64,000 nt of DNA from Anaerolineales bacterium. Its GTDB lineage: Bacteria > Chloroflexota > Anaerolineae > Anaerolineales > Villigracilaceae. The stretch is taken from positions 8,500-72,499 of the forward strand of contig JAGUZU010000087.1 in assembly GCA_020060625.1 (NCBI GenBank), written 5' to 3'. Of this stretch, positions 4,961 through 60,930 are shown one piece after another. Each line of letters starts with the position of its first letter. Position 1 is the stretch's first letter. A model generated the notes under the pieces. That model was not told the origin of the DNA, made no database searches, and was given only the letters and a program-made list of their open reading frames with translations. Position numbers and translations under genes: made by a program.

Positions 4961-5031
4961 TGGGGCATGGTGCAATGGCAGCACACCAGCCTTTGGAGCT
5001 GTGGATCTTGGTTCGAATCCAGGTGCCCCAG
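4961..5031 (+). tRNA. tRNA-Gln (anticodon TTG)
   Basis: Hand-folded cloverleaf: acceptor TGGGGCA/TGCCCCA, D arm GTGC-AATGGCA-GCAC, anticodon arm CCAGC-CTTTGGA-GCTGT (loop anticodon TTG), 4-nt variable loop, T arm CTTGG-TTCGAAT-CCAGG, discriminator G. UGGGG...CCCCAG ends are typical of bacterial tRNA-Gln. Confidence 0.88.
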
Positions 5032-6498: not shown

Positions 6499-6903
6499 AT
6501 GATCACCAAAGCAGAAAAGCAATCCCTGATAGACCTTGCCAACGAAGCCCGCCGCCGCGCGTATGTGCCTTATTCGCATTACCCTGTCGGCGCGGCGCTG
6601 CGGACGAAAAGCGGAAAACTTTACACGGGTGTCAATGTGGAAAACGCCGCCTACCCGCAGACAATGTGCGCCGAGCGTGTCGCTATTTTCAAAGCCGTTT
6701 CCGAAGGCGAAACTGAATTTGAAGTGATCTCCGTTGTCACCAAGAACGGCGGCTCGCCCTGCGGCGGATGCCGGCAGGTGTTGGCGGAATTCGGGCTGAA
6801 TACCATTGTCCTGATGGCAAATGAGGATGGGAAATTGGTGAAGGAAATGACCGTCAGCGAGTTGCTCCCTGAAGCGTTCACGCCAAAACATCTCATCAAG
6901 TAG
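6499..6903 (+). CDS. cdd: Cytidine deaminase
   Basis: Zinc-binding motifs CAERVAIFKAV and PCGGCRQVL. ATG at 6499 just after the glmU stop (listed ORF 6412 start overlaps glmU). Confidence 0.9.
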   Translation: MITKAEKQSLIDLANEARRRAYVPYSHYPVGAALRTKSGKLYTGVNVENAAYPQTMCAERVAIFKAVSEGETEFEVISVVTKNGGSPCGGCRQVLAEFGLNTIVLMANEDGKLVKEMTVSELLPEAFTPKHLIK

Positions 6904-7788: not shown

Positions 7789-8534
7789 ATCCTCTGCTGT
7801 AGGGTTTTGGTCATCGGCTGGGTATCTATTTCCCCGGAAGCCGAGCGGGCATCGGAGGCGTAACCCAGCCTTCGCATGGCGATCCGCCGCGCCCAACTGA
7901 AGATGGCGCGCGCCGATTCCTCCCCGTCGTAAGGGATGGGGAGGGTGGCGTTGGTTTCGAGCGCGGCGCGCAGTTCCCGGGCGGTTTTGCCGGCAAACTC
8001 GATGCGCCCCGCGCCGACCGCCCAATAGATGTGCGCGTCGCTGGAGGCGATCCTTGCCAGCGGCAGGTATGCCGAAATTTTGCGGGCGACCTTGTCGAAG
8101 GCTTGCGTGCCCATGTTGTGCGTTTCGATGCCCTTCAACACGTCCTTGGCGCGCGGATGGGCGAGCGCCCTCAGCACGGCTTTCATCGAAAGGCTGTTGG
8201 GCAGGTTGTTGAACGGGTGCGGGGCGATGGCGATGCCCCCCTGCCGTCCAATGTGCAGGAGCGTATCCACGATGGACATCCCCGCGGGCGGGAGGGTCTT
8301 GATGTACAGAGCCACCAAATGCCCGTCCTCGGTGGAGACTTCCGCACCGGGGACGACCTCGACGCCGTAGGCGGGCGCAATCTGCTGCGCTTCCAGCGAA
8401 CCCCTGAATTCGTCGTGATCGGTGATGGCGATTACATCCAAGCCGACGTCCATTGCCTGTTTGAGGATGGCATGAACGGTGGCGGTTGCGTCGTGGGAAT
8501 AGATGCTGTGAATGTGAAGGTCTGCGGTGCCCAT
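7764..8534 (-). CDS. PHP-domain metal-dependent phosphoesterase
   Basis: ADLHIHSIYSHD, VIAITDHD, IAPHP, SSDAH histidine-rich PHP motifs. Confidence 0.85.
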   Translation of the reverse strand: MGTADLHIHSIYSHDATATVHAILKQAMDVGLDVIAITDHDEFRGSLEAQQIAPAYGVEVVPGAEVSTEDGHLVALYIKTLPPAGMSIVDTLLHIGRQGGIAIAPHPFNNLPNSLSMKAVLRALAHPRAKDVLKGIETHNMGTQAFDKVARKISAYLPLARIASSDAHIYWAVGAGRIEFAGKTARELRAALETNATLPIPYDGEESARAIFSWARRIAMRRLGYASDARSASGEIDTQPMTKTLQQRIKRKRDGK

Positions 8535-8569: not shown

Positions 8570-9754
8570 TCATTTCGCGCTTCCGGCGGAAGGCCAGCCC
8601 TGCGGTACGCCTTTTTTACTCCAATTCAAAACGAATATCCAGGCTGCAAGCAGGACGACGGGTTTCATCAACCGCCAGAGCAGGATTTGGAACCACTTCC
8701 ATTTGAAGGAATAGACGACCTGGGCAATAACCCAGCGCGCGAACAGGGTTTGACCAAGCCCGCTTCGTACCAGCCGACGCTTGTACCTGCTGAATGAGAA
8801 TTCGCCACGCTGAAACGACTCGGCGATCTCCTGCGCGGCGACCGCGCCGCAGCCCAGCGCCATGCTGATGCCTTCGCCGAAGACCGGGTCCGCGCCGACG
8901 GCATCGCCAACGAGCAGCACGCGCGGAACGGACGCCTTGTTCCACGGGCTGTACCAGCGGATGGGGTGACCTTTGATTTCGTACTCGTTCAAGTCGAAGC
9001 CGCGGCGTTTCATCTCTTCGGCGAGCGGTTCTTTCAATGCCGGGCGTTTCCGGTCTGCGAGCAGGTTTGTATCGTAGACGCCCCAACATCGCATGGACTG
9101 ACCCTTGACCTGCGTGGGGAAGTCCCAGACGTAGCCTGCGATGTTGTTGGGAACGGGGAAGAAATCGAAGAACGCCACCCCCTCCCGTCCTCCACCAATA
9201 CTGGGGGAGGGTTGGGCGGGGGTCAAAACTTCCAATACCCTTGCCGTGTAAACGGGATCGTTTGGAAAGATACAGCGACGTGTGACTCCATTCGAACCGT
9301 CCGCGCCGACGACGACCTGTGCGCGAAATTCTCCTTGATCGGTTTCGACGATAGCGCAATCTTCACGCGGCTGAACACTTTTTACAACGATTCCCTCTCT
9401 AATCTCTATTCCCCTGCCCTCTGTTTTTTTTGCCAGCCAGTGATCGAACTCGTCGCGGCGGATGATGCGGATGGCGTGACGCTTTCGGATGCGGACGTTC
9501 AACCCTTTGCCTGCGAAGTCGAAGCGCGCGGATTTGGCATCCACGTGCGGGACTTCGCTCACGTCCAGCCCGAGGCGTTCGAGGATGATCTCGGCGTCGA
9601 TAACCAGCCCGCCGGCGCAAAGTTTCAGGCGTGGATAATGTTCCTTTTCGAGAACCAGGATGCGGGGAGTGAGAGGCGGGGCAAACTTTGCCAGATGAAG
9701 CGCAGTGGAGAGTCCGCCCGGTCCGCCGCCGAGGATGAGGATGTCTTTATCCAT
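8570..9754 (-). CDS. FAD-dependent oxidoreductase, geranylgeranyl-reductase-like, with hydrophobic C-terminus
   Basis: ILILGGGPGGLSTA dinucleotide-binding motif, VVGADGSNGVTRR, LVGDAVG. Start taken at MDKDILIL (ATG 9754-9752), which overlaps the upstream stop as TGATG. The listed ORF extends to 10069 over the upstream gene. Confidence 0.8.
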   Translation of the reverse strand: MDKDILILGGGPGGLSTALHLAKFAPPLTPRILVLEKEHYPRLKLCAGGLVIDAEIILERLGLDVSEVPHVDAKSARFDFAGKGLNVRIRKRHAIRIIRRDEFDHWLAKKTEGRGIEIREGIVVKSVQPREDCAIVETDQGEFRAQVVVGADGSNGVTRRCIFPNDPVYTARVLEVLTPAQPSPSIGGGREGVAFFDFFPVPNNIAGYVWDFPTQVKGQSMRCWGVYDTNLLADRKRPALKEPLAEEMKRRGFDLNEYEIKGHPIRWYSPWNKASVPRVLLVGDAVGADPVFGEGISMALGCGAVAAQEIAESFQRGEFSFSRYKRRLVRSGLGQTLFARWVIAQVVYSFKWKWFQILLWRLMKPVVLLAAWIFVLNWSKKGVPQGWPSAGSAK

Positions 9755-11121
9755 CACGCATACGCGCCGGACCAGGTCTCGAAGCGCCGCCCATCGTGTT
9801 CTTCCGGCGTGTAGAACGTGAGGTAGGTGAGCGCCTGGTACGGCACGAACTTTTGTTCCCTGGGGTTTTGAATGGCGAGGTCGTAATAGGAATGCCACGT
9901 GCCTGCGTTGAAATAGACCTGGCTTTCGGGGTTTGAGGCTGCAAAGGTCATTCCCAGCGGCACCACTTCGTAATGATGCGTATGCCCGTACACGATGTGC
10001 TGGGCTTTGCCGTTGAGGTAAAACGGCTCTTTCAACGCATAATTGGCGAAAGAATGTTTTCCGCCCCACATCTTCTTGCGCACCCAGATGACGACATCGT
10101 TGATGGTCGAGAAGGAGGCGCGCCCTGAGATCTTCACGATCAGTTCCATCGCGTCCACCACATCGAAGCGGAAGGCTTTATCCGCTTCGCGCACGAAATC
10201 CATTTGCAGAAATTCATCGGCGATCTCGTCCCAAACCTGCTTCAACTCATCCTCCAGCGGATGCTCGCCGGCGTAGTGGCGGATCTGTCCGCTGATCCAC
10301 AACGGCGCCGCCAGCACCGGGCGGATGTTGGCGATCTTGCGCAAACTGTCTATGATGCCGGAGGGCAGCAGGTCGCCGTACCGTTTTTGCACTTCCACCG
10401 GAAAGCGGTTGCAGACGTCCATGGTGAAGGCGTCGCCGACCGTGCCGTGGTCGCGTCCCTTTTCCTTATCGAAGTTGAACTTGTCGTACATGTCGCCGTG
10501 CCGCGCAAAGACTTTATGACGCTCGAACAACTCTTGCAGGAGCGGGGATTCATCCGCTTCATACGGGAACGGGGAGGCTGGGTTGCTCAACCCCATCCTT
10601 TGAATCATCTCGAGGCGGATTCTGTCGAAGGCTTCGCCTTTGAGGTGGTAATACCAATCGTGGTTGCCCACCATGTAATGGATGCGTACTTTGAGCGGAA
10701 TCTGCTCTGCGGTTTGGAAATCGGGCTTGCCGTCGCGGGTGGCGGGCGCGAGTTGAATCTTTTCTCCGCTGGCGAGGCGGCGCAGGATGTCCATGGCTTC
10801 CTGATTTTCATCGAGGATCGCGCGTGTGACTTCGAGAAGCTTGGGCGCATAATGCGGATTGGACGGATCGGACCAGGGTCGGATGTAGTTGGAATCTCCG
10901 GGGGTGGTATCCAGCCAGCGGGTGGAGTGAAGCGGGTCGAGGACGTCGCCCATCAGGAGGACATCGAGGTTTTCGATGGGGCGGTATTTTCCGTCCTTGC
11001 GAACGGATGCGAAGCGGGCGGTTTCGGTGAGGCGGCGCGCGAACAGCCGAAACGCGCTGGCGGAAATTGAATCGGCGGTGGTTCCGTCTCCAAGGTGAAG
11101 GTCGCTGACGATGACTAACAT
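9754..11121 (-). CDS. Calcineurin-like metallophosphoesterase (455 aa)
   Basis: VSDLHLGDG, LLMGDVLD, MVGNHDWY, VYGHTHH motifs in canonical order. Confidence 0.85.
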   Translation of the reverse strand: MLVIVSDLHLGDGTTADSISASAFRLFARRLTETARFASVRKDGKYRPIENLDVLLMGDVLDPLHSTRWLDTTPGDSNYIRPWSDPSNPHYAPKLLEVTRAILDENQEAMDILRRLASGEKIQLAPATRDGKPDFQTAEQIPLKVRIHYMVGNHDWYYHLKGEAFDRIRLEMIQRMGLSNPASPFPYEADESPLLQELFERHKVFARHGDMYDKFNFDKEKGRDHGTVGDAFTMDVCNRFPVEVQKRYGDLLPSGIIDSLRKIANIRPVLAAPLWISGQIRHYAGEHPLEDELKQVWDEIADEFLQMDFVREADKAFRFDVVDAMELIVKISGRASFSTINDVVIWVRKKMWGGKHSFANYALKEPFYLNGKAQHIVYGHTHHYEVVPLGMTFAASNPESQVYFNAGTWHSYYDLAIQNPREQKFVPYQALTYLTFYTPEEHDGRRFETWSGAYA

Positions 11122-11174
11122 GATTTCTCCTCGGCGTGAATTATAGCGCGATTGACTTGGCTGACCGCATGTTT

Positions 11175-11298
11175 GTTGGATGATAAGGAAAAGCCTTGTG
11201 GTGAGCGAAGCCGAACCATCCTCCCCGGGCAGGATTTCGACATTCCCTTCGGTCGCAACCTACCAGATTGGGAATTGGAAATCCGCGAAGCGGTATAA
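11175..11298 (+). pseudogene. Internal fragment of a TIR-domain gene (codons equivalent to WLDKEK...LLPGQDWELEIREAV), interrupted by short insertions
   Basis: Nucleotide and peptide similarity to 14752-14815 of the full-length TIR gene and to 12113-12212. No start codon of its own. Ends in TAA inside GGTATAAT. Confidence 0.7.
11194..11220 (+). repeat. 27-nt insert CCTTGTGGTGAGCGAAGCCGAACCATC inside TIR fragment (copy 1 of 2)
   Basis: Same insert at the same codon position in the fragment at 12135-12161 (2 mismatches). Absent from the full-length gene. Confidence 0.75.
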
Positions 11299-11304
11299 TT
11301 GTCA
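11292..11304 (+). promoter_or_regulatory. Conserved cassette left end GGTATAATTGTCA (contains a -10-like TATAAT)
   Basis: Identical 13-mer at 13090-13102, in both cases at the junction between a TIR fragment and the first cargo gene. Confidence 0.4.
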
Positions 11305-11322
11305 TTGTTCAGGAGAAAGACA

Positions 11323-11541
11323 ATGACTGTTTATCCACATCCATACACAAAAAAAATTTCCCAGGAAATCGAAAAGACACCAGATGAGTATTTGCCCGCC
11401 TTATTGGAAATGATTCGCCTGTTCCGTGAGACCGTGACACTTAAACCCGCCGACGAAAGTTTTGCGCAGGGCTGGAAAGAGGCGATGAACAACGAATTGC
11501 TCCCGCTCGATCAACTTTGGGAAGGGATAGATGCCCGATAG
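11323..11541 (+). CDS. Small hypothetical protein (72 aa), antitoxin-like, first gene of the hicBA cassette
   Basis: ATG at 11323 preceded by AGGAGA. No family recognised. Confidence 0.5.
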   Translation: MTVYPHPYTKKISQEIEKTPDEYLPALLEMIRLFRETVTLKPADESFAQGWKEAMNNELLPLDQLWEGIDAR

Positions 11542-11565
11542 CCTAAAGTGAAAAGAGGCAGTTTT

Positions 11566-11763
11566 ATGAAATACAAAATCCGACTCGAAGAAACAGACGA
11601 GGGCTTTGCCGTTTGGGTTCCTGGCTTGCCAGGTTGCTGGTCGCAGGGAGAGACGGAAGAGGAAGCCATCGAAAACATCAAGGACGCGATCAAAACATAT
11701 CTCGAAACCATTGAAATCTTGAACCAGAATGAGGAAACCCGCATTGTGGAGGTTCCAGTTTAA
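11566..11763 (+). CDS. hicB: HicB-family antitoxin
   Basis: MKYKIRLEETDEGFAVWVPGLPGCWSQGETEEEAIENIKDAI is the UPF0150/HicB N-terminal signature. Listed ORF starts at 11548. Confidence 0.8.
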   Translation: MKYKIRLEETDEGFAVWVPGLPGCWSQGETEEEAIENIKDAIKTYLETIEILNQNEETRIVEVPV

Positions 11764-11765
11764 TC

Positions 11766-11978
11766 ATGCCCAAATTGGCGGGAATTCCACACCAGCGGGC
11801 GGTAAAAGCATTCGAGAAAGCGGGGTTTCGCGTCATCCGCGAAGGGAAACATATCTCGATGGCAAAAGATGATCGTATTATCATCATCCCGCGCAATAAC
11901 CCGATCAACGCCTTCACCATGGGCGGAATTATCAAGGACGCGGGGTTGACCATCGACGAGTTCAAGAAATTGTTGTAA
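11766..11978 (+). CDS. hicA: HicA-family mRNA interferase toxin
   Basis: KAFEKAGFRVIREGKHISM...IIPRNNPI...IIKDAGLTIDEFKKLL matches the YcfA/HicA pattern. Starts 2 nt after hicB. Confidence 0.8.
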   Translation: MPKLAGIPHQRAVKAFEKAGFRVIREGKHISMAKDDRIIIIPRNNPINAFTMGGIIKDAGLTIDEFKKLL

Positions 11979-11980
11979 CT

Positions 11981-12212
11981 ATGACAACAGATAAACGCCC
12001 CCTCAAAGTCTTCCTGTGCCATATTATCCCCTTGTGGGACGCCCACGCGGACCGTGACGCCGTCCGCGCACTGCCGTAGGACGCGCCTGACGGACGATGG
12101 CGTGGACCGCTTCGCGTGGCTGGACAAAGAGAAACCTTGTGGTGAGCGCAGTCGAACCATCCCCGGCGCGGACTGGGAATTGGAAATCAAAAAAGCCGTG
12201 CGCGAAAAGTGA
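11981..12212 (+). pseudogene. Decayed 5' part of a TIR-domain gene (MTTDKRPLKVFLCH ... WLDKEK ... DWELEIKKAVRE)
   Basis: Own ATG. A roughly 18-nt insertion after CH, a premature TAG, a frame change and the 27-nt insert. Collinear with codons 1 to about 65 of the full-length gene. Confidence 0.75.
12135..12161 (+). repeat. 27-nt insert CCTTGTGGTGAGCGCAGTCGAACCATC inside TIR fragment (copy 2 of 2)
   Basis: See 11194-11220. Confidence 0.75.
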
Positions 12213-12225
12213 GTATAATAAAACC

Positions 12226-12489
12226 ATGACCACTTATACGCGAAAACGCCCCACGTACAAAACGGCTTTGGAACTGGCTCGCCAATTATCTCTGCGGGAC
12301 CAGCGGCGTTTGCGCGCGGAACTGGCAAGATTGTCTTCAACCAGATTCGTGCGTCCGTCCCGTGATCCCAAGGTCAGGCGTTCTGCGCTTCTGCTTGCAA
12401 ACGAGATACGAAAAACAGTGCAGTCTGCCACGGCAAAACAATCGCTTGATGATGGGATGCGCCAATTGCGGGGACGTTCATGGTCGTGA
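12226..12489 (+). CDS. Putative antitoxin (87 aa, basic) partnered with the following PIN gene
   Basis: ATG at 12226. 10-nt overlap with the PIN gene. No family recognised. The listed ORF 12097 start runs through the TIR fragment. Confidence 0.5.
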   Translation: MTTYTRKRPTYKTALELARQLSLRDQRRLRAELARLSSTRFVRPSRDPKVRRSALLLANEIRKTVQSATAKQSLDDGMRQLRGRSWS

Positions 12490-12935
12490 TCGACTCGGAT
12501 GTATTGCTTCTGGCTTTTGCATACCCCAACGATGACCGCCAGAGTGTAAATTTGAAATTTCTTGAAGCCGTTCAAACTGCCCAGCCTGCCACCACGATCT
12601 ACAACGTGATGGAAGTCCTTGGGCAGTTGTCTTTTAATCTTTCGGAAGAACAATTGGAAGGCTGGCAGGATTGGCTTGTCAATGCCTACAATCTGACCGT
12701 TATCTGGGACGCCGACTCAAAAGAGAAAATTGACCCTGAAACGTGGCGCGAAATCATTTACGAGCGTCCATTTCAGAAAATGCGAAGTGCCCGCATGGCG
12801 TTCATGGATGCCTTGATTATTTCGGCTACGGAATATGCTCCAGATGTGGATTGTTTCGTGACGTGGAATGCCAAACACTTCAAAGGAAAAACGGATTTAA
12901 CGGTTTTGACCCCCGAAGAATATTTGGCAAGATAG
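12480..12935 (+). CDS. PIN-domain ribonuclease toxin (VapC-like)
   Basis: Acidic quartet candidates VIDSDVLL, NVMEVL, FMDALI, TWNAKHF. Confidence 0.7.
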   Translation: MVVIDSDVLLLAFAYPNDDRQSVNLKFLEAVQTAQPATTIYNVMEVLGQLSFNLSEEQLEGWQDWLVNAYNLTVIWDADSKEKIDPETWREIIYERPFQKMRSARMAFMDALIISATEYAPDVDCFVTWNAKHFKGKTDLTVLTPEEYLAR

Positions 12936-12963
12936 TTTTCATTACCACCAAAACGGGACGGAT

Positions 12964-13074
12964 ATGACCGAGACCAAGCGACCTCTGAAAGTATTTTTAT
13001 GCCACGCCCACGCGGACCGGGACGCCGTCCGCGCACTATACACGCGCCTGACGGACGATGGCGTGGACGCATAA
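12964..13074 (+). pseudogene. 36-codon 5' stub of a TIR-domain gene (MTETKRPLKVFLCHAHADRDAVRALYTRLTDDGVDA-stop)
   Basis: About 87 percent identical by eye to the stub at 13840-13950, including about 14 nt upstream (AAAACGGGACGGAT). Stop codon sits where the intact gene continues with TGG. Confidence 0.8.
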
Positions 13075-13089
13075 CCCCATAATTTGGGC

Positions 13090-13102
13090 GGTATAATTGT
13101 CA
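13090..13102 (+). promoter_or_regulatory. Conserved cassette left end GGTATAATTGTCA (second copy)
   Basis: Identical to 11292-11304. 11 nt upstream of the PIN gene ATG. Confidence 0.4.
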
Positions 13103-13113
13103 CTGGAATTCAA

Positions 13114-13557
13114 ATGACCAAAATCTATCTCGATACATGCTGTCTTAATCGCCCATTCGATGACCAAACTCAAGAGAGGATTCGTCTTGAGGCGGAAGCA
13201 GTATTGGCAATTCTGTCTCGAATTGAAAAAGGTGACTGGGATTGGGTTGGAAGCGATGTATTGACTGACGAGATCGAACAGACGCCAGACACTCAAAAAT
13301 TAAGCCGCTCAAAATTGCTGTCAGGTTTCATTGATGAAAATGTGGAGATCGGCGAAAAAGAAATCAAGCGAGCGGCAGAATTACAGAAAGCAGGCTTTCA
13401 AATCTTCGATGCCTTGCATCTTGCCTCTGCTGAAAGCGCAAACGCGGACGTTTTTCTTTCGACCGATGACCGCCTGTTGAAACTGGCGAAACGAATATCG
13501 AAACGATTGAAAATACGAGTAATGAACCCTCTTGCCTGGGTAGAGGAGATGATCTGA
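13114..13557 (+). CDS. PIN-domain toxin
   Basis: IYLDTCCLNRPFDD, FDALHLASAE, FLSTDDRL motifs. ATG at 13114 (listed ORF from 13084). Confidence 0.7.
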   Translation: MTKIYLDTCCLNRPFDDQTQERIRLEAEAVLAILSRIEKGDWDWVGSDVLTDEIEQTPDTQKLSRSKLLSGFIDENVEIGEKEIKRAAELQKAGFQIFDALHLASAESANADVFLSTDDRLLKLAKRISKRLKIRVMNPLAWVEEMI

Positions 13558-13778
13558 TGAATGCACAAACAATGTCTCTTGAACAAATCCGCATCGCTGG
13601 CATGGAAGCGCTGGCGCGTGAACTTGGTATTGTGGGTATGGTGCGCTTCCTCCAGCAATTTGAAACGGGACACGGCGACTACTCCAAAGATCGCCACAAA
13701 TGGCTCGACGACCAAGACTTGGATACCATTGTCAAGCGGATTCAAGAGAAAAGGGAAACCAACAAGAAAGCGAAATAA
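13557..13778 (+). CDS. Putative antitoxin (73 aa) overlapping the PIN gene stop (TGATGA)
   Basis: Start overlaps upstream stop. Small helical protein (LEQIRIAGMEALARELGIVGMVRFLQQFETGHGDYSKDR). Family not identified with certainty. Confidence 0.55.
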   Translation: MNAQTMSLEQIRIAGMEALARELGIVGMVRFLQQFETGHGDYSKDRHKWLDDQDLDTIVKRIQEKRETNKKAK

Positions 13779-13839
13779 CCTGAAACGGCGCGTTCCTTGT
13801 GGTGGCGCGTCGTTTTTCATTCACTAAAACGGGACGGAT

Positions 13840-13950
13840 ATGACCGAAGCCAAGCGACCATTGAAGGTATTTTTATGCCATGCCCACGCGGACCGGGACG
13901 CCGTCCGCGCACTGTACACGCGGCTGACAAACGATGATATGGACGCGTGA
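13840..13950 (+). pseudogene. 36-codon 5' stub of a TIR-domain gene (MTEAKRPLKVFLCHAHADRDAVRALYTRLTNDDMDA-stop)
   Basis: Direct repeat of 12964-13074. Breaks at exactly the same codon. Confidence 0.8.
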
Positions 13951-13965
13951 CAAAAAGGCGGAATT

Positions 13966-14583
13966 ATGAATTGGGCAGATGAAAACCAGGAGTGGAAAAG
14001 ACAGCAGGAACAAAAGGTAAAGACAAAAGAATCGCGAGAAAAATTTAAAGCAGCTTCTGGCAATACTGCTGAATGGAATCGCGTATACAAAAATTATCTT
14101 TCTTCTCAAATCTGGCGAGAAATAAAGAGAAGGAAATTCAAACAAGTGGGGTATAAATGTGAAAGATGTGGAGCCGAATATATTAATGAGGCTGGATTGC
14201 AAGTTCATCATCTAAACTATGATCGCGTAGGTGGGCTTGAAAGGGATGGCGATCTTCAAATTGTTTGTGCAGGGGAATGTCACGAAGACGCCGATGAAGA
14301 ACGGGTTGAATCTGAGAGAAGATACGCAGAATATGAGCGTTGGTTTGAAAATTGGGGTACAAAAGTATATAAAGATGAGTGGGCAATGAAGAAATATGAT
14401 GATGAAATGCAAATGCGTGAAGAGTTTTGTGAATACGCCTATAAAATATGGTGTAAAAAGAACAACAAGGCTTATCGGTCTTATTTGAAAATCCCTGATG
14501 AATTTGTTGAATTGCTGGAGAGTGGCTTGTATGATGAATACGAAGAAGAATCTTATGATGACGATTTTTCTTGGTATAGGTAA
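13966..14583 (+). CDS. HNH-endonuclease-like protein with acidic C-terminal tail
   Basis: YLSSQIWREIKRRKF..CERCG...LQVHHLNYDRVGGLERDGDLQIVCAGECH is the phage-type HNH layout (CxxC ... HH ... CxxCH). Visibly AT-rich. Confidence 0.65.
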   Translation: MNWADENQEWKRQQEQKVKTKESREKFKAASGNTAEWNRVYKNYLSSQIWREIKRRKFKQVGYKCERCGAEYINEAGLQVHHLNYDRVGGLERDGDLQIVCAGECHEDADEERVESERRYAEYERWFENWGTKVYKDEWAMKKYDDEMQMREEFCEYAYKIWCKKNNKAYRSYLKIPDEFVELLESGLYDEYEEESYDDDFSWYR

Positions 14584-14644
14584 TCAACTAGAAAACTTCT
14601 TTTCAGTTGTATAATTTCGTTACTCCTTAGCGGGAAACCTCCCT

Positions 14645-15825
14645 ATGCCCGAACCCAAGCGCCCCCCCTCAAAGTCTTTCTCTGCCACGCACACAGCGAC
14701 AAAAATGCAGTGCGCTCTTTATATTCGCGTCTTAAGCGGGAAGGTGTTGACGCCTGGCTTGATAAGGAAAAGCTTCTTCCAGGTGCAGATTGGGAATATG
14801 AAATTCGCAAGGCTGTACGTGAAGCAGATGTAGTGGTGGTTTGCCTCTCAAAGCAGTTCAACCAAGCGGGGTTTCGACAGAAAGAAGTACGCCTTGCCCT
14901 TGATACCGCCATGGAAAAACCCGAAGGCGAGATTTTTATCATCCCTGCGCGCTTGGAGGAATGTGACAATCTCGAAAGCCTGAGAAAATGGCATTGGGTG
15001 GATTTATTTGAATCAGACGGTTATCAAAGCCTTGCGAGTACATTGAAAGCGCAGGCAGAGAAAGTCGGTGTAACCTTACAGATGAAACGTTCCAGAAAAT
15101 CGAAACCTATTGTGCAACTGCAGAAGAAACAGGGCATTTCAGAAAAAGCGATTTCATCAAGTGGCGTGGGGATTGGTGATGGAGTGTCTGAAAGTGTAAT
15201 TGTTACAGGTCATGGAAACGTTATCAATTTTGGCAATTCTGTGAGTTTTCCACCTTCCGAGAAACCAGAACAAGGCTCTGTTAAAACGAACTTGCATATT
15301 CAGTGGGTACCAACGGATGAATTGTATGATGGAAAGCCATACATAAGTATTGACATAACAAACAGGGAAAATCGCCTTGTCAGATGTCGTTGCTATATCA
15401 AGTCTTTGGGGCTAAACGGAATTACCCGTGACGACATAAAGCACGAAATTGTAAAGCATACAAATCGAGTTTCGTGGTCAGGTGGTTCAGATGAGGAAGT
15501 AGGAATTAAACATATTGATCCAAGGGGCTTCGGGAGAATAAATTTGGCGTCTTTGGACTCCCAAGATTTTATTCGGCGTCCTTTGCAGTTTGAAACCGCA
15601 AAGGGTGCTCAATTCAAAGACAAAGATGGTAGATACTTACCGTTTGGGAGATACATGGTTGAACTTGGATTGGCTTGTAGCGCTGATGGGAGAGATTTTA
15701 CGGAGATACCCATCAAGATAGGATTTGAATATATTGAGGAAAGAGTTCCCTTTGAGGATGATAGAATAAAAAACGGAATAACGATAAATAGAGTATTACG
15801 TCTTTTGGAAATAAAGCCAAAATAA
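14645..15825 (+). CDS. TIR-domain protein with uncharacterised beta-rich C-terminal domain. Reading frame broken in a C7 tract (14662-14668)
   Basis: ATG 14645 (MPEPKRPP) is in frame 2. The TIR core PLKVFLCHAHSDKNAVRSLYSRLKREGVDAWLDKEKLLPGADWEYEIRKAVREADVVVVCLSKQ...FRQKEVRLAL is in frame 1. The ORF track therefore splits it into 14645..14833 and 14710..15825. All fragment copies carry C5 at this position. Confidence 0.75.
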
Positions 15826-15852: not shown

Positions 15853-15933
15853 ATGGATACTAACAAACGCCCCCTCAAAGTCTTCTGCCACGCCCACGCG
15901 GACAAGCCGAAGGTGATGGAACTCCAGCTTTGA
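15853..15933 (+). pseudogene. 26-codon stub of a TIR gene 5' end (MDTNKRPLKVF-CHAHADKPK...)
   Basis: 21-nt identity AAACGCCCCCTCAAAGTCTTC with the fragment at 11991. One codon deleted, then diverges. Confidence 0.65.
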
Positions 15934-16006
15934 ACCGCAACTCAGATGGAGAATGGACTCAACCCCATTCTCCATCTTCCATTACCCATCAGTTATAATC
16001 CCCCCG

Positions 16007-16046
16007 CAACTTCAAACTGAATACTGACCACTGGTTACTCAAAACT
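16007..16046 (+). repeat. Heptamer array (nnACTnn) x6 forming the leader of the orphan glyQS 5' copy
   Basis: caacttc aaactga atactga ccactgg ttactca aaactat: strict 7-nt phasing of ACT, running into the ATG at 16047. Confidence 0.7.
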
Positions 16047-16108
16047 ATGCCTTCCTCTTTCCAATCCATCATCCTCAACCTCCAAGACTTCTGGGCATCG
16101 CACGGATG
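16047..16108 (+). pseudogene. Orphan 5' end of glyQS ([20 protein letters not shown])
   Basis: Collinear with 16904-16975 of the intact glyQS ([22 protein letters not shown]). Homology stops at CACGGATG, 2 nt before the vapC stop codon. Confidence 0.85.
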
Positions 16109-16110
16109 GG

Positions 16111-16515
16111 TTACATCGCTCTTAACAGATCAATGAATTCGCGCGCAGTGATGATGGGGATTTCTCTGAACGAGCTGATTTCCAGCAGGTGATTATCCCC
16201 GCTGACAACGTAATTTACTTTCCCAGCCACTGCCGCTTCGAGAAATTTATTATCTGTGGGGTCAGCCACGATGACAAGAATTTCCTCTTCTGGCGTAACG
16301 AACTCGGCGATTCGCAAAAGATAATCGGTGGCGGCAATAATTTCGCTTTTCGGGATTTTGAATTTTGGGCGATTGATAACATCCAGATATTCATGTGCAA
16401 CCGCTTCTGTCACAATCAGTTTGAATTTCCCCGCTTTCCATTCGTCAATGATTACGCCCAATCTTCCGCCCAACGTGGCGGAAATAAAAATATTTGTATC
16501 CAAAACCACGCGCAT
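16111..16515 (-). CDS. vapC: PIN-domain toxin VapC
   Basis: VVLDTNIFISA, TEAVAHEY, VADPTDNKFLEAAV, VSGDNHLL motifs. AT-rich. Confidence 0.8.
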   Translation of the reverse strand: MRVVLDTNIFISATLGGRLGVIIDEWKAGKFKLIVTEAVAHEYLDVINRPKFKIPKSEIIAATDYLLRIAEFVTPEEEILVIVADPTDNKFLEAAVAGKVNYVVSGDNHLLEISSFREIPIITAREFIDLLRAM

Positions 16516-16748
16516 TATTTGCCGTCCCGTACCGCGCGGATTTCGGCCTCTATGTCTTCATCGGTAATGTTCATTTCTTGCGCCCGCGCGCGTATGGATT
16601 TCAAGGCTTTATCGAAGCGTTCTTCCAGTTCTTTTTCTTCGGTTGGAATGCTTAATTTTAAGTAGCGAATAAAAGCCAGCACGTCTGCATAACGGGTTTC
16701 TGGCAACGTGGAAATTTCAAGCATGATGGTTTGTTCTAAATTGGTCAT
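16515..16748 (-). CDS. Antitoxin partner of VapC (77 aa)
   Basis: Stop overlaps the vapC start by 1 nt. Small acidic helical protein. Confidence 0.6.
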   Translation of the reverse strand: MTNLEQTIMLEISTLPETRYADVLAFIRYLKLSIPTEEKELEERFDKALKSIRARAQEMNITDEDIEAEIRAVRDGK

Positions 16749-16852
16749 GTTTCACCTCGTTAAAATTATTATACCTGCAATAAATGCCCTCGAAACAGAA
16801 CCAATTTCCACCGTCGCGTGAAACGCAAATCTTCCATCACCTTTCCATCAGT

Positions 16853-16858
16853 TATAAT
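16853..16858 (+). promoter_or_regulatory. -10 hexamer TATAAT of glyQS (duplicate copy at 15994-15999)
   Basis: CATCAGTTATAATCCC block conserved in both glyQS upstream copies, about 45 nt before each ATG. Confidence 0.45.
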
Positions 16859-16861
16859 CCC

Positions 16862-16903
16862 ATCCGTAATCCAAAATCGTAAATCTGAAATCGAAAATCC
16901 TAC
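16862..16903 (+). repeat. Heptamer array (ATCnnnA) x6 forming the whole glyQS leader
   Basis: atccgta atccaaa atcgtaa atctgaa atcgaaa atcctac then ATG. Exactly 42 nt, no Shine-Dalgarno motif. Confidence 0.75.
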
Positions 16904-19900
16904 ATGACACAAAAAGCCTCTTTCCAATCCATCATCCTCAAACTACAAGACTTCTGGGCATCGCACGGATGCCTGATCACACAGCCCTACTACACCCAGG
17001 TTGGCGCAGGGACGATGAACCCTGCCACCTTCCTGCGCGTGCTCGGACCCGAACCGTGGAACGTCGCCTACGTCGAGCCGTCTGTCCGTCCCGATGACGG
17101 GCGTTACGGCGAGAACCCCAACCGCTTCCAACTCCACACTCAATTTCAGGTCATCCTCAAGCCCGACCCCGGAAACCCGCAGGAACTCTATCTCGAGTCG
17201 CTCAAAGCCCTCGGCATCGACCCGCGCCAGCACGACATCCGCTTCGTGGAAGATAACTGGGAGCAACCCGCCATCTCCGCCTGGGGCTTGGGCTGGGAGG
17301 TCTGGCTCGACGGACAGGAGATCACGCAGTTCACCTACTTCCAGCAGATGGGCGGCGTGACGCTCGACCCCGTCTCGGTTGAGATCACCTACGGTCTCGA
17401 ACGCATCCTCATCGCGCTCAACAACGCCAAAGCCATCTGGAACGAAGAGTTCGGCGCAGGCGTCACCTATGGCGAGATCCGCCGTCAGGAAGAGTTCGAA
17501 CACTCCAAATATTATTTTGAAACCGCCGACATTGACCGCGTCCGCGCCATGTACGATCTCTTCTCCGCCGAAGCCGACGCCTGTCTCGCCGCCGGTCTCA
17601 TCGTCCCCGCGCACGACTACGTCCTCAAATGCTCGCACTCCTTCAACATCCTCGACACTCGCGGAGCCATCTCCGTCGCCGAACGTCAAGCCTTCTTCCG
17701 CCGCATCCGCGAACTCGCAAGGGGAGTGGCGCTCGCGTATGAAGAGCAGAGGAAGAATCTTGAGTATCCGCTATTGAAAGAAAAGGGAATAGTGAATAGT
17801 GAATTGGGCAAGGCATCCCTTCCTATTCCCCATTCCCCATTACCTTTCTTGCTTGAAATCGGTGTCGAAGAACTTCCAGCAGACGACGTCAATACCGCCT
17901 ACGCAGCCTTATCTGCCCGTGTGCCGACTCTTCTCAAGGAACTGAATCTCACTCATGGCGACGTCCGCATCTTCACAACCCCGAGGCGGATTGTCGTTTC
18001 AGTAGCCTCTCTCTCCCCGAATCAGCCTGACCGCGAAGACCTTGTCAAAGGTCCCCCCGCCGACAAAGCCATTGTAGGACAAGGCTCTGCCTTGTCCACC
18101 CCCGCCGAAGACGTAAGTCGGATTGCCAATCCGACCTACACTCAGGCGGCGATTGGCTTCGCCAAAAAGAACGGCATCAACGTCGAAGACCTGCAAGTCC
18201 GCGAAGAAGGCAATAACAAATACGTCTTCGCCCTCGTCAAGCAGACTGGACGCCCCACGCCCGAAGTCCTCGCCGAAGCATTGCCCAAGTTGGTGGCGGA
18301 TATCAAGTTCGAGAAGTCCATGCGCTGGAACGACTCCGGCGTCTCCTTCTCGCGTCCCATCCGCTGGTATGTGGCTCTGCTCGGTGACATGGTCATCCCG
18401 TTCGAATATGCTGGCGTCGTTTCTGGCAACGTCTCTCGCGGACTCCGCCCCTACGACTCGCCAGAGATCAAAATCACATCCGCCGACAAATACTTCGACA
18501 TCATCCGCGAAGCGGGCATCATTCTCGATAAAGAAGAACGCAAAGCCGCCATCGTGGAGCAAGTCAAACAAGCCGCGGCGCTGGTCGGCGGGGAAGCCAT
18601 CATCGAAGACGGTTTATTAAACGAAGTCACCAACCTCATCGAATTGCCCACCGCCGTTATGGGTGGATTCAACGAAGAATTCCTTTCATTGCCGCGCGAT
18701 GTGTTGATCTCGGTGATGAAGAAACACCAACGCTATTTTCCAGTTCAAAGTTCAAAGTCGAAGGTTGCAGGTTCGTCTGACCTTCAATTTTCAACCTTCA
18801 ACCTTTTACCCAATTTTATAGCCATCCGCAACGGCGACGACATGCACATCGACACCGTCCGCGAAGGAAACGAACACGTCCTCGGCGCGCGCTTTGCGGA
18901 TGCGAACTTTTTCGTCCGTGAAGATGTGAAACTCAAGCTCGAAGAATATCGCCCGAAACTTGCTTCGCTGACCTTCCACACCAAGCTCGGCTCCATGCTC
19001 GATAAATCCGACCGCATGTTGAAACTCGGCGCGGAAATCGGCGCAATGCTGGGTTACAAGAAGGATGACGTGACCGGCATCAAAAACCTTGCGCGCGCGG
19101 TCTATCTCTCCAAAGCCGATTTGGTCACGCAGATGGTCACCGAAATGACGTCCCTGCAAGGCATCATCGGCGGAGAATATGCCTTGCGAAGCGGCGAAGA
19201 CCCCGAAGTGGCGCAGGCGATTGCCGAACAGTATCAAACCGTGCCGGGATCGAAGATCGGTCTCGCGCTTGCGCTGACAGACAGGCTTGACTCCCTCATC
19301 GGTCTTTTCGCGGCGGGACTCGCTCCCACCGGCGCGAAAGACCCGTTCGGTCTGCGCCGTGCCGCGATTGGAGTCGTCCAGCCGCTCATCGAACATGACG
19401 TGGACTTCGATCTTGCGGAAGCGATCAAGAAATCCGCCATGACTCAACCCATTGAAGTCAGCGATGAAGCGCAGGCAAAAATTCTGGAATTTATCGCGGG
19501 GCGTCTGTCTGTGGTGTTGAAAGATGCAGGCTACAAACATGACGTCGTCGAAGCCGTGCTGGCGGCGTGGCGCCGCGGCGCCGCTAACCCGGCGGCGTCT
19601 GCCCGGGCGGTGAAGCAGTTGTCGGCTTGGGTCGGAGGCGAAGACTGGCGCGAAATCCTGCCTGCGTTCGCGCGTTGTGTCCGCATCACCCGCGATCAAA
19701 AACAGACGTTCAAAGTGAACGAGAATGCCTTTGTCGAAAAAGAGGAAAAGGATTTATTCAAGGCGTTGGAGAAGGCGGAAAAGTCCAAACGCGCCGAAGG
19801 CTCGGTGGATGATTTCCTGAATGCTTTCGTGCCGATGATTCCCGCTGTCAACGCCTTCTTCGACAAAGTGCTGGTGATGGCGGAGGATGTAAAGGTCAAA

Positions 19901-19981
19901 GAGAACCGGCTTGGCTTGTTGCAGCGCATCGCCGCGCTCGCAAGCGGCATTGCCGACCTGAGCAAACTCGAAGGGTTCTAA
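16904..19981 (+). CDS. glyQS: Glycine--tRNA ligase, fused alpha and beta subunits
   Basis: N-terminal GlyQ ([17 protein letters not shown]...YFQQMGG...) through about residue 290, a linker, then GlyS ([13 protein letters not shown] ... [10 protein letters not shown] ... [11 protein letters not shown] ...). Single 1025-aa ORF. Confidence 0.92.
17786..17848 (+). repeat. 63-nt heptamer array (9 x 7 nt = 21 codons) forming the GlyQ-GlyS linker
   Basis: ggaatag tgaatag tgaattg ggcaagg catccct tcctatt ccccatt ccccatt acctttc. Left units (GAATnGT) and right units (CCnATTC) are roughly complementary. Confidence 0.65.
18743..18805 (+). repeat. 63-nt heptamer array (9 x 7 nt) in frame inside the GlyS part
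   Basis: gttcaaa gttcaaa gtcgaag gttgcag gttcgtc tgacctt caatttt caacctt caacctt. Encodes [21 protein letters not shown] between the conserved QRYFP and LPNFI motifs. Confidence 0.65.
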
Positions 19982-58980: not shown

Positions 58981-59008
58981 GATAAGGTAGCAACTTAGTA
59001 CCTTATCA
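58981..59008. repeat. Perfect 9-bp palindrome GATAAGGTA-n9-TACCTTATC. Its right arm is the left copy of a 14-nt inverted repeat bracketing the nuclease islet
   Basis: TTAGTACCTTATCA at 58995-59008 and its reverse complement at 60842-60855. GATAAGGTA also recurs directly at 60843-60851. Confidence 0.7.
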
Positions 59009-59066
59009 ATGAAATTCTTGTTTTTTGCCTGCACTGTGACGCAGGCACACGTGTGCAAGGTTTTTT

Positions 59067-59130
59067 CCACCACAGAGAACACGGAGATCACGGAGAAACC
59101 CTTTTTGAAATCTCTGTGCGCTCTGTGGTG
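59067..59130. repeat. Hairpin repeat of the CACCACAGAG family
   Basis: CCACCACAGAGAACACGGAGATCACGGAG ... TCTCTGTGCGCTCTGTGGTG. Confidence 0.7.
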
Positions 59131-59368
59131 AAATCTCTTTCGGCTTGTCCGAGTTAGGTTATTCCAATTAAAAATGCTGCCGCCGGGAAACCCAGCGGCA
59201 GCTTTCGCCAAAGGAGGAGACAGGGGTGAGCATTGGAGGTGTCTTCTTGCCGTCTCCTGATTCATGTTAATCCATGTTTCTCTTTTTCACCATGTCAAAT
59301 GTCACAGATTGAAAGTGATAATATTCACAAACTGTCACAGGATATTCAAAAAGTCTTTTGTCTTGAGG

Positions 59369-60842: not shown

Positions 60843-60930
60843 GATAAGGTACTAAAGAAAGCCCCGCCCAACCCTCGATAAACAACTTCGAACTCGCGTC
60901 CGCCGGTGATGGAACAGGCAAAATAAACGT

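Follow-up and report, generated by a model that had tools for sequence, protein, structure and literature searches.

We find that the two direct repeats flanking a PIN cassette in an Anaerolineales genome are the leftover 5' ends of immune-type TIR-domain genes, and that they stand in a longer row in which such truncated gene ends (stubs) are interspersed with small cassettes. Our preferred reading, to which we give a probability of roughly 0.55, is that ordinary recombination, with no dedicated integrase, both captures and shuffles these cassettes, using the conserved end of a neighboring gene as its anchor. Toxin-antitoxin (TA) and defence genes move readily between genomes, and the vehicle for most of them is not known; the arrays in many uncultured Anaerolineales suggest a simple route in which any conserved gene end beside a cassette can serve as a capture handle and each capture leaves a datable scar, the stub. 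If this is true, stubs would be a readable record of island growth, cassettes and hot spots could be found in metagenomes without an integrase search, and the arrays would offer a testable integron analogue that runs on general recombination.

The window (the whole 64,000-nucleotide stretch of DNA that was analysed) contains a 5.7-kb island located between a metallophosphoesterase gene and glyQS, with a GC content of 42-51% as against 55-60% in its surroundings. The island holds six stubs and five cassettes, among them HicAB, PIN pairs and an HNH gene, and each cassette has its own GTATAAT -10 box. All features given below lie on the + strand except cassette c5. We found no transposase, terminal repeats or RT in the island; the sole tRNA is at 4961 and no Rfam family threshold is reached inside the island, which, together with the lack of an integrase beside the arrays, led us to reject an integron or a tRNA/att island.

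At the left of the island, a TIR fragment (11152..11292, codons ~37-57; identified from sequence, ORF translation and repeat families D4 and D6) contains a 28-nt REP-like insert at 11194-11221, found in a 28-mer search, and ends GCG GTA, the GTA overlapping the -10 box of the next cassette. This cassette, c1 (11293..11980; GTATAAT at 11293), has three ORFs: a 72-aa ORF (11323-11541) with a weakly RelN-antitoxin-like C-terminus, HicB (11566-11763; Pfam HicB_lk_antitox, 2e-11) and HicA (11766-11978; Pfam HicA_toxin, 2.9e-8). Its junction with the stub recurs in L044 and L096 (L numbers denote the contigs and loci compared with the window). Stub 2 (11981..12206) is the decayed 5' end of a TIR gene (codons 1-59; tblastn query positions 1-25 and 27-59) and begins 2 nt past the HicA stop, a HicA-end/ATG junction that is kept in L018. 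It carries inserts of 18 nt (IIPLWD, 12021-12038), 6 nt and 28 nt, the last being REP-like (12135-12162). Y1 transposases and REP hairpins are found near the arrays in L099, L100 and L079. Cassette c2 (12213..12935; GTATAAT at 12213) consists of an 87-aa ORF (12226-12489) that overlaps a 151-aa ORF (12480-12935); profile searches gave no family match for either, and it is from the layout alone that we call the pair TA-like.

The repeats on either side of the PIN cassette had been described in an earlier note on this DNA as direct, as reaching upstream of the ATG and as ending at the same codon, and our analysis bears this out. Stub 3 (12946..13075; 18 nt of TIR leader, 36 codons, TAA) and stub 4 (13822..13951; 18 nt of leader, 36 codons, TGA) are 130-nt copies, the sole family that the repeat search returned at these positions, and by our own count 114/130 positions are identical (88%), with 17/18 identical in the part upstream of the ATG. 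In BLAST, with a single gap, the alignment reaches 135 nt (E = 4e-40). Both copies encode MTE(T/A)KRPLKVFLCHAHADRDAVRALYTRLT..DA and then a stop, which confirms them as truncated gene 5' ends, and the stops are created at the same codon: the junctions read GACGCA/TAA and GACGCG/TGA, where the intact gene has GACGCC TGG. Because both junctions fall after the same GACGC. codon, the breakpoints are not offset. The DNA to the right of the two junctions had been called unrelated, and so it is, except that both have T(A/G)AC and, as a remnant, GGCGG(T)A(T)AATT. The two copies differ by 10 synonymous and 4 non-synonymous changes (pN/pS 0.13). A DGR, with its template/variable repeat pair, was rejected since the mismatches are of all kinds, mostly synonymous and not adenine-specific, and since there is no RT. 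Within the inter-cassette repeats, which consist of TIR leader and coding sequence, we found no long inverted repeats and no conserved palindromic site; a 7-bp CGCGGAC..GTCCGCG pair is missing in many copies, which have GTGCGCGGA there.

Between the two repeats lies cassette c3 (13076..13821), with a left end TAAC..AATTTGGGCG of its own and its GTATAAT at 13091; the whole cassette, ends included, is conserved in 8 genomes. The PIN gene (13114-13557) matches Pfam PIN PF01850 (E = 6.6e-8, above the curated cut-off), and a 73-aa ORF (13557-13778) overlaps its stop (ATGA), a gene order with the toxin first. This small ORF has no family match in profile searches; it accompanies the PIN gene in the 8 distinct contexts examined and is decayed in L017 and L040. 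From the domain and the kept partner, c3 is predicted to be a type II toxin-antitoxin-like cassette (PIN/VapC-like). It ends in a GC hairpin and a T-run (~13783-13815), and its PIN protein has >2000 homologues at 75-95% identity. Upstream of its -10 box the cassette keeps 23 nt that belong to it, and it is attached to TIR codon 36 in the window, L012, L018 and L040, and to codon 57 in L062, L072 and L084; its end TGAC..AATTTGGGCGG is alike in the codon-36 and codon-57 forms.

To the right of stub 4 is a putative HNH-type nuclease gene (13966-14583, 205 aa), which with its flanks spans 13952..14604. The match is to the PADLOC ZorE HNH profile (2.9e-8) and, in NCBIfam, to the HNH part of IscB (1e-6, below the family cut-off), with no Pfam match at 0.01. 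Considered as a candidate free-standing homing endonuclease gene, it shows linkage to TIR genes: it stands directly upstream of the TIR gene in the window and in L099, and in L100 it adjoins a TIR stub and glyQS. The junction between stub 4 and the HNH gene is kept in L099, where c3 is absent. The c3 and HNH junctions can be aligned past the break, with TGAC..GGCGG..AATT in both, and are therefore probably one junction by descent; the common breakpoint of stubs 3 and 4 is most likely due to the descent of their junctions from one older junction. Judging by their presence in other genomes, both codon-36 junctions are old and inherited, and as evidence of recurrent site-directed cutting at this place, which is how they had been taken, they fail.

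The full-length TIR gene follows (14605..15825; a TIR_2 domain, Pfam 1.8e-27, and a C-terminal region of unknown kind), with its promoter TTGTATAAT at 14606-14614. A C7 run at 14662-14668 puts its ATG (14645) out of register with the TIR reading frame; in L099 the homologous leader has C5 and the frame is kept. Stub 5 (15854..15905) comprises the first ~15 codons of another TIR gene, matching the L018 TIR start (6736-6773), and is probably the former resident TIR gene of this site. We rejected an internally deleted TIR-FGE-sulfatase gene as its source: the start together with the downstream hairpin and promoter matches L018, but the tail is unlike the sulfatase 3' end.

Now we consider the last cassette, c5 (16111..16774, - strand; GTATAAT at 16774-16768), which has a 77-aa ORF (16748-16515) and a gene for a predicted PIN_3 toxin (16515-16111; Pfam PIN_3, 2.5e-20). 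In the window it is bracketed by copies of the glyQS 5' end: a stub (15975..16108) with a duplicated promoter (TTATAAT), leader and first ~20 codons, which aligns with the true promoter and 5' end at 16830..16971 (gene 16904-19981). The coding part (55 nt) is 96% identical and the leader has diverged; the leaders of glyQS are rich in AATC, and slippage may make them change quickly. The same bracketing is seen in L105, where the glyQS stub keeps 44 codons as against 21 in the window. Elsewhere c5 stands between two copies, 161 nt long and 84.5% identical, of the 3' end of a glycosyltransferase gene (L107, L108) or between TIR stubs (L109-L112), so that its flanks are stubs of three different genes, with an inverted orientation in one case. 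The L107 repeat has 15 synonymous and 10 non-synonymous differences (pN/pS 0.17) with both copies in frame. The repeat pairs (stubs 3 and 4, the L107 repeat, the glyQS stub) are not fresh in-place duplications. Three anchor genes for c5, and the joining of c3 at codon 57 or 36, do not fit a dedicated att site; the stub comes from whichever gene happens to be the neighbor. A glyQS breakpoint that seemed common to the window and L012 proved on close reading to be offset by ~6-9 nt.

Stubs are present at 47/83 Anaerolineales TIR loci (at least 4 stubs at 9 of them), and TA-cassette arrays split by TIR stubs occur in every PIN-homologue context examined, with cargo from the MNT/HepT, Fic/Doc, RelE, DUF5615/PIN_10, RHH, HicAB and PIN families. 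Leftovers that retain TIR codons 1 to N comprise the six window stubs and 93 in related loci, and it is these 93, from ~75 loci, that make up our survey of stub ends. The breakpoints had been thought far from random, and they are: 36/93 stubs end at codons 57-61 and 16/93 at codons 34-41, while only 6/93 extend past codon 61 in genes of 370-1000 codons; breakpoints in a divergent TIR family fall at the two clusters again. A breakpoint after AVRE that the two 'older' fragments were said to share holds as a class and not as an identical position, since 11152-11292 ends ..EAV (GCG GTA/TAAT, codon 57) and 11981-12206 ends ..AVRE (codon 59), an offset of ~2 codons. The stub ends, spread over >25 positions, have no shared motif, and no fixed crossover core is common to all repeats (c3 joins at two different codons, 36 and 57). 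For 40/93 stub ends a stop in frame occurs no further than 2 codons away, and the other two frames give counts of 21 and 9. We rejected the idea of a boundary of homology at codon 60: among 56 full-length TIR 5' regions identity is flat over nt 0-366, and in these same regions DNA identity upstream of the ATG is at chance level. That stub ends gather at two places in the TIR domain may reflect a nuclease target, or else selection acting on partial TIR proteins to remove them.

Leader copies start at -2, -9, -31 or with the promoter included, and often exactly where the TIR -10 box would end; cassette left ends are 0-25 nt from a -10 box, and the junction GCGCGAG/ATAATTGACGTATAAT precedes three unrelated cargos. 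Of the 93 stub ends, 38 have an exact TATAAT no more than 25 nt away, compared with 1.9% of random positions. The 13-mer GGTATAATTGTCA, which the earlier note reported at two cargo starts, is indeed present exactly twice (11292 and 13090), and the common word extends to 15 nt, GCGGTATAATTGTCA. As a sign of a site-directed process it does not stand up, because in essence it is promoter sequence, made up of a -10 box and a discriminator: every cassette promoter in the island is marked by GTATAAT, GGTATAATTG also stands before an ordinary transporter gene at 1791, and the PIN cassette in other genomes has GGTATAATTA(T/C)T at that place. The idea that a stub supplies the -35 box was rejected, as no GTATAAT box has a TTGACA-like hexamer 16-18 nt away.

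In the reading we prefer, arriving cassette DNA would share homology with the recipient only at the conserved end of the neighboring gene, which here would be the first ~180 nt of the TIR gene and elsewhere the glyQS 5' end or the glycosyltransferase 3' end. One side of the cassette would be closed through homologous exchange within that gene end, and the opposite side would be joined illegitimately a short way inside the same gene. Break repair, copy-choice on a foreign template and Campbell-type integration of a circularised fragment are possible routes, and all would give the same product: the cassette with a functional copy of the gene to one side and a truncated one to the other. Repeated rounds would then build the pattern stub-cassette-stub-cassette-gene, with shorter stubs presumably arising from longer ones by deletion on the junction side and stubs being refreshed, we suppose, via exchange with working TIR genes.

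The exchange step is seen directly in L014, which has one cassette (cB) twice: the cassette-proximal parts of the flanking stubs are alike in both copies, and in its distal part the second left stub agrees with the stub of L012, which is uninterrupted. This cassette was copied between stubs through homologous exchange. Stubs act as portable homology: from one TIR 5' copy to another, cassettes are transferred or copied by means of homologous recombination. A given cassette can have stubs of different length in different genomes (codon 57 or 36 for c3, 44 or 21 for the glyQS stub). In the window, L011 and L018 no gene flanking the arrays was found to encode a recombinase, although one could act in trans from elsewhere in the genome. 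The primary joint we infer and do not see, because in no pair of near-identical genomes did we catch a single insertion event; same-strain contigs that carry the window's own proteins (L001-L010) are all 100% identical to the window and so supply neither empty nor filled sites. The recombination model does not account for the pile-up of breakpoints at codons 57-61 and 34-41 with its sharp stop at 61, and it leaves unexplained why left ends lie near the -10 box and why GCGCGAG/ATAATTGACGTATAAT precedes unrelated cargos. The low pN/pS could alternatively come from gene conversion by working paralogues and not from imported flanks.

A further step, which we regard as possible and put forward tentatively, would make the conserved first ~180 nt of Anaerolineales TIR genes integrase-free recombination sites for a shared pool of TA and defence cassettes, with stubs as selfish homology arms. 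RecA-type exchange would admit stub-bearing cassettes into any genome with that multi-copy gene, and the same exchange would keep the stubs similar to working genes. The breakpoint classes would then mark a break or stall hot spot at ~codon 40 and ~60, just before strand beta-C, at positions conserved in two divergent TIR families; either a nuclease, for which the linked HNH protein is one candidate, or the stalling of forks at repressor-bound -10 regions may be the cause.

How else might such a row of gene ends be produced? An integron-like site-specific system, with its recombinase encoded elsewhere and the TIR 5' region or the GTATAAT box as its site, has the following in its favor: the two breakpoint clusters (36/93 and 16/93) and their recurrence in the divergent TIR family, the left ends at or just before GTATAAT (38/93 against 1.9%), the three unrelated cargos behind GCGCGAG/ATAATTGACGTATAAT, and the leader copies that begin exactly at the expected end of the TIR -10 box. 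We nevertheless consider it unlikely, since the arrays examined have no recombinase beside them, the >25 stub-end positions share no motif, c3 keeps 23 nt upstream of its own -10 box and joins two different codons, c5 is flanked by stubs of three genes and inverted once, and a conserved palindromic site is lacking, the 7-bp pair often being lost. Equally doubtful is the decay of a tandem array, in which TIR paralogues once alternated with TA cassettes and later lost their bodies, leaving the 5' ends. Tandem full-length TIR genes are indeed common (L023, L025, L041, L042), 20 stub-to-next-TIR distances are <130 nt without cargo between, stub length varies for the same cassette and stub 5 resembles the resident TIR gene minus its body. 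However, single-copy glyQS and glycosyltransferase genes are likewise partially duplicated around a cassette, random deletion would give all lengths when just 6/93 stubs exceed codon 61, every right-hand deletion end would need to halt within 25 nt of a promoter, and the L014 mosaic is an insertion by exchange, not a loss.

Two other explanations fare worse. The stubs might be functional, either as selected short translated leaders or peptides or as insulators against ribosomes or read-through before the next promoter, as the intact 36-codon ORFs of stubs 3 and 4 with their ribosome-binding leader and low pN/pS, the excess of in-frame stops (40/93 against 21 and 9) and persistence across cargo divergence of 75-95% identity would suggest. 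Many stubs, however, have REP-like inserts, frameshifts and internal stops (stub 2; L018, L040, L095), length and leader vary for the same cassette, and the glyQS and glycosyltransferase 3'-end stubs cannot share such a role, which makes this very improbable. Scarcely credible is a transposition-like duplication of the target in place, by widely staggered cuts that duplicate 130-200 nt each time, with the copies drifting afterwards. Direct target repeats of similar length (130-215 nt) do flank cassettes at three different genes, yet their differences are mostly synonymous (pN/pS 0.13 and 0.17) though at least one copy per pair is non-functional, flanking-repeat identity is 84-88% and no recent insertion with identical flanking repeats was seen. 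Moreover, the glyQS leader has diverged where its coding part has not, the right end of copy 2 is the older stub/HNH junction found without c3 in L099, and there is neither a transposase nor terminal repeats. An IS200/IS605-type mini element was rejected because the cassettes have no conserved left-end target tetranucleotide and no shared subterminal hairpins.

Literature searches for the stub-cassette architecture gave no match, and the arrays can be set beside several known systems. For the orphan immunity arrays of the Vibrio cholerae T6SS, illegitimate recombination facilitated by homology was suggested (PMC5361080), and on the displacement of rhs C-terminal regions that paper cites Jackson 2009. 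The displacement arrays of polymorphic toxin loci, which include orphan C-terminal modules of Rhs and CDI as well as the T6SS arrays, are like ours in having a gene family with a constant part in variable surroundings, successive acquisitions through homology in the constant part on one side and an illegitimate joint on the other, and a row of leftovers that keep pieces of the constant region, with no integrase known for them. In contrast, TIR stubs are 5' ends upstream, the mirror image of 3' ends downstream; their cargo is unrelated TA or HNH cassettes with their own promoters instead of a variable end plus immunity gene; and the process also uses unrelated anchors (glyQS, glycosyltransferase). 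Integron arrays, including chromosomal integrons and those with TA cassettes, share the rows of small, mostly same-oriented cassettes of 1-2 genes, a repeated element of 60-200 nt between cassettes, frequent TA cassettes, and cassettes that are common to several genomes and duplicated within arrays. The TIR arrays differ in having no attI, no attC-type palindromes and no intI beside the window, L011 and L018 arrays; what is repeated in them is the 5' coding end of the gene next door, every cassette brings a promoter of its own, and the L014 exchange falls inside ordinary homology.

SXT is one of the elements that target gene ends, in its case the 5' end of prfC. Tycheposons and other tRNA-targeting islands come with partial tRNA repeats in rows (bioRxiv 10.1101/2020.12.28.424599). 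Such elements resemble our arrays in the truncated target end on one side and the restored gene on the other, in the tandem accretion of repeat, cargo and repeat, and in that cargo-only units can be without a recombinase. They work, however, with a tyrosine recombinase and a fixed core, whereas in the TIR arrays breakpoints and leader boundaries are variable, three target genes serve a single cassette, and no integrase was found beside the arrays examined. The pdif modules of Acinetobacter plasmids are recombinase-less, often carry TA pairs and are reshuffled by a host recombination function. Like the cassettes here, they are small modules bounded by repeated sites; theirs are 28-nt XerC/D sites in alternating orientation, whereas those in the TIR arrays are direct copies of gene ends of 60-215 nt.

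Both central claims of the earlier note, that direct repeats of about 125 nt flank the PIN cassette (c3) and that both copies break off after the same codon, hold on exact alignment. A repeat search returns a single family (12946-13075 and 13822-13951, 130 nt, 88%), direct counting gives 114 identical positions of 130 (17 of the 18 upstream of the ATG), and BLAST, allowing one gap, carries the match on to 135 nt (E = 4e-40). Each copy, which we call stub 3 and stub 4, consists of an 18-nt leader, CAC[C/T]AAAACGGGACGGAT, and 36 codons for MTE[T/A]KRPLKVFLCHAHADRDAVRALYTRLT..DA. Without any offset, both terminate exactly where the full-length gene at 14645-15825, which carries a TIR_2 domain (E = 1.8e-27), has GAC GCC TGG. 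The copies differ by 10 synonymous and 4 non-synonymous changes (pN/pS 0.13). The two fragments described as older with a shared breakpoint do fall in one class, but their ends differ: codon 57 (GCG GTA joined to TAAT) and codon 59 (..CGC GAA joined to AAG TGA). The 13-mer GGTATAATTGTCA noticed at two cargo starts occurs exactly twice, at 11292 and 13090, and is a promoter word.

The repeats sit within a 5.7-kb island of 42-51% GC, against 55-60% around it, flanked on the left by a metallophosphoesterase-like gene on the minus strand (9754-11121) and on the right by glyQS (16904-19981), with dnaG and rpoD beyond. From left to right we find a TIR fragment of codons ~37-57 (11152-11292), cassette c1 with a 72-aa ORF, HicB and HicA (11293-11980), the decayed stub 2 with codons 1-59 (11981-12206), cassette c2 with 87-aa and 151-aa ORFs (12213-12935), stub 3 (12946-13075), c3 with the PIN gene and a 73-aa ORF (13076-13821), stub 4 (13822-13951), an HNH-type gene (13966-14583), the full TIR gene (14605-15825), stub 5 with codons 1-15 (15854-15905), a second copy of the glyQS promoter with the first ~20 codons (15975-16108), the inverted cassette c5 with a 77-aa ORF and PIN_3 (16111-16774), and the real glyQS promoter and gene (from 16830). 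Given the TIR stubs and the glyQS duplicate, the window therefore shows the pattern of gene-end copy, cassette and gene twice, each time with a different gene. A GTATAAT box starts c1, c2, c3, c5 and the full-length TIR gene, and five of the seven such words in the 64 kb fall inside the island; no GTATAAT box has a -35 hexamer at normal spacing. The word TTGAC(G/T)TATAAT, in which a -35-like word abuts the -10 box directly, is frequent in cassette and TIR promoters of related loci (e.g. L030 5850, L040 3575, L018 3830, L099 ~520). Just before the glyQS promoter stub lies a perfect 12-bp hairpin, GATGGAGAATGG..CCATTCTCCATC (15944-15978; kept in L018 at 8075-8110), probably the terminator of a former upstream gene.

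This island is one instance of a widespread build-up of toxin-antitoxin (TA) and defence cassettes beside conserved gene ends in Anaerolineales. Same-strain contigs, which carry the window's own proteins, are 100% identical to it and so offer no comparison. Homologues of the c3 PIN protein number more than 2000 across Anaerolineales and other Chloroflexota, many of them 75-95% identical to it, and every homologue context examined (L011-L016; L017; L018-L020) is an array of small cassettes with TIR stubs between them; L018 is syntenic with the window, glyQS included. A scan for the TIR N-terminus with one genome per species gave 78 loci, nearly all in Anaerolineales. Stubs occur in 47 of 83 non-redundant TIR loci, with at least two in 24 and at least four in 9. 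Between a stub and the TIR start that follows it lie either fewer than 130 nt or, in most cases, 350-1100 nt, the length of a single cassette. ORFs between stubs belong mainly to TA families (MNT/HepT, Fic/Doc, RelE, DUF5615/PIN_10, RHH, HicAB, PIN, DUF433, DUF4160/DUF2442), and 88 of 114 are oriented as the TIR gene. The relatives are metagenome assemblies throughout, in which repeats are liable to mis-assembly; on the window island itself, several independent assemblies agree at every base. Some loci hold stub-only tandems, with TIR 5' ends at ~160-290-nt spacing and no cargo between (L091 3135-3792, L097 8859-9219).

The breakpoint regularities are real. Stub ends, set by tblastn alignment ends and thus good to about ±2 codons, fall at TIR codons 10-20 in 6 of 93 cases, 21-27 in 7, 28-33 in 11, 34-41 in 16, 42-50 in 8, 51-56 in 3, 57-61 in 36 and beyond 61 in 6, in genes of 370-1000 codons. 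With at least 10 different junction sequences and cargos in it, the 57-61 class does not go back to a single event, and the same break positions (after WLD and after AVE) occur in a TIR family only ~51% identical (L109). DNA identity among 56 full-length TIR genes is flat over nt 0-366. An exact TATAAT lies within 25 nt of the stub end in 38 of 93 (1.9% for random positions), and an in-frame stop within two codons in 40 of 93 (21 and 9 in the other two frames). The junction GCGCGAG joined to ATAATTGACGTATAAT stands identical ahead of three unrelated cargos.

How, then, did two stubs in one island come to end at the same codon? The left junction of c3, ..GTGGACGC(A/G) joined to T(A/G)AC..AATTTGGGCGGTATAAT, is common to the window, L012, L018 and L040, and in L062, L072 and L084 the same c3 end (TGA(C/T/A)..TTTGGGCGGTATAAT) is joined to TIR codon 57; a 63-nt deletion between TG..TG could have turned the codon-57 form into the codon-36 form. 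L099 also has the junction of stub 4 with the HNH gene, GACGCG joined to TGACAAAAAGGCGGAATTATG, together with an HNH protein of 84% identity and, after it, again a TIR gene. Past the break, TGAC and GGCGG(T)A(T)AATT occur at the c3 and the HNH junction alike, which suggests a c3-type cassette whose body was replaced by the HNH unit; the two breaks would then probably be one break by descent. Of the site-directed process argued for earlier, non-random breakpoints across genomes thus stand, but the window's own pair is best explained by shared descent.

Comparison of cassettes across loci reveals that the stub originates from whichever gene neighbours the cassette. Cassette c5 lies between glyQS 5' copies in the window and L105 (stubs of 21 and 44 codons), is bracketed in L107 and L108 by a 161-nt repeat (84.5% identical) of a glycosyltransferase gene 3' end, and in L109-L112 by TIR stubs. 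The L107 pair differs by 15 synonymous and 10 non-synonymous changes (pN/pS 0.17) with both copies in frame, and the glyQS stub matches its gene at 96% over 55 coding nt with a leader that is not alignable. Differences so rich in synonymous changes, together with the leader mismatch, indicate that the copies of each pair diverged as working genes; the pairs thus did not start as identical copies that later drifted, and either one copy was imported with the cassette or stubs were converted by working genes. Homologous exchange within stubs moves cassettes: L014 has another cassette, cB, twice, with the cassette-adjacent stub segments common to both copies, and the outer part of its second left stub matches a stub that stands uninterrupted at the corresponding place in L012, as Campbell-type or unequal exchange would produce. 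Stub length also varies for a single cassette (the c3 and glyQS stubs described above), for which junction-side deletion is the simplest reading. Downstream of the glycosyltransferase remnant, L107 has a decayed TIR fragment (4640-4700, LDEEEL..GQ..), so that site once held a TIR array.

We favour, at a probability of about 0.55, homology-anchored capture with an illegitimate joint, followed by shuffling. Incoming cassette DNA and the recipient would have nothing in common but the conserved end of the neighbouring gene; homology there would resolve one side of the cassette, and an illegitimate joint slightly further inside that gene would, we infer, close the other. Copy-choice or break repair on a foreign template could serve, as could integration of a circularised fragment, and any route would leave the cassette between a working gene copy and a stub. 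Repeated captures would build the array; homologous exchange of stubs with one another and with TIR paralogues would shuffle cassettes and keep stubs gene-like, and deletions would shorten stubs.

An integron-like site-specific system would account for the clustered breakpoints and the boundaries at -10 boxes, but we consider it unlikely given the many different breakpoints, the three anchor genes of c5, the sequence that c3 has of its own upstream of its -10 box, and the lack of any integrase or other recombinase gene flanking the arrays in the window, L011 and L018. Equally doubtful is decay of tandem TIR gene arrays: tandem paralogues and shortened stubs are what it predicts, yet anchor genes can be single-copy, long stubs are absent and L014 is a mosaic. 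That stubs are functional seems improbable with REP inserts and frameshifts so frequent in them, and in-place target duplication, contradicted by the substitution pattern, is more improbable still.

Among known systems, the nearest analogues are the Rhs/CDI and Vibrio T6SS effector-immunity displacement arrays, for which homology-facilitated illegitimate recombination was put forward (PMC5361080); the window arrays are their mirror image, with 5' stubs piling up upstream and unrelated TA cassettes as the inserted units. Integron arrays are alike in layout, but the window arrays fail the defining tests (no intI, no attC). Gene-end-targeting islands and tycheposon rows also leave partial target copies, whereas the window arrays have no fixed core and no integrase beside them. 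Our literature search found no paper describing such a stub-cassette architecture, and this mode of accumulation is apparently undescribed.

REP-like footprints occupy fixed sites in TIR 5' copies at many loci (in the window 11194-11221, 12135-12162, 12021-12038 and 12108-12113), namely after KVF, LCH (IIPLWD), DRDPV (PQGDDM), VD (RF/RY), KEK (PCGERSRTI) and PGQ (GFDRLNLP); identical footprints in stubs of many genomes imply that the lineages of stubs have a long history and are shared widely. Some arrays have REP-associated Y1 (IS200-like) transposase genes and perfect REP hairpins immediately next to them (L099 2-343, L100 117-689, L079 7426-7797), and in L018 the -10 box of the PIN cassette is followed at once by an inserted ~120-nt element (5866-5985), whose inverted ends are ATTACAGCGC / GCGCTGTAAT.

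In the full-length TIR gene, a C7 run (14662-14668, region 14645-14710) puts the ATG out of the TIR frame; the run is present in all independent assemblies of the window strain, and the homologous L099 leader has five C and is in frame. The gene is thus either broken or slippage-switched in the C run. The HNH-type gene is rare (11 homologues found), has a TIR gene immediately downstream of it in the window (13966-14583) and L099 (693-1319), and in L100 (834-1481) adjoins a TIR stub plus glyQS; it could form a two-gene defence unit or be a homing-type nuclease linked to TIR genes. A second low-GC patch (59000-61000, 41-43% GC) is probably another defence islet, with a minus-strand gene for a PLD-type nuclease (59976-60842) that is DrmC-like according to PADLOC and with a 205-aa ORF without family match.
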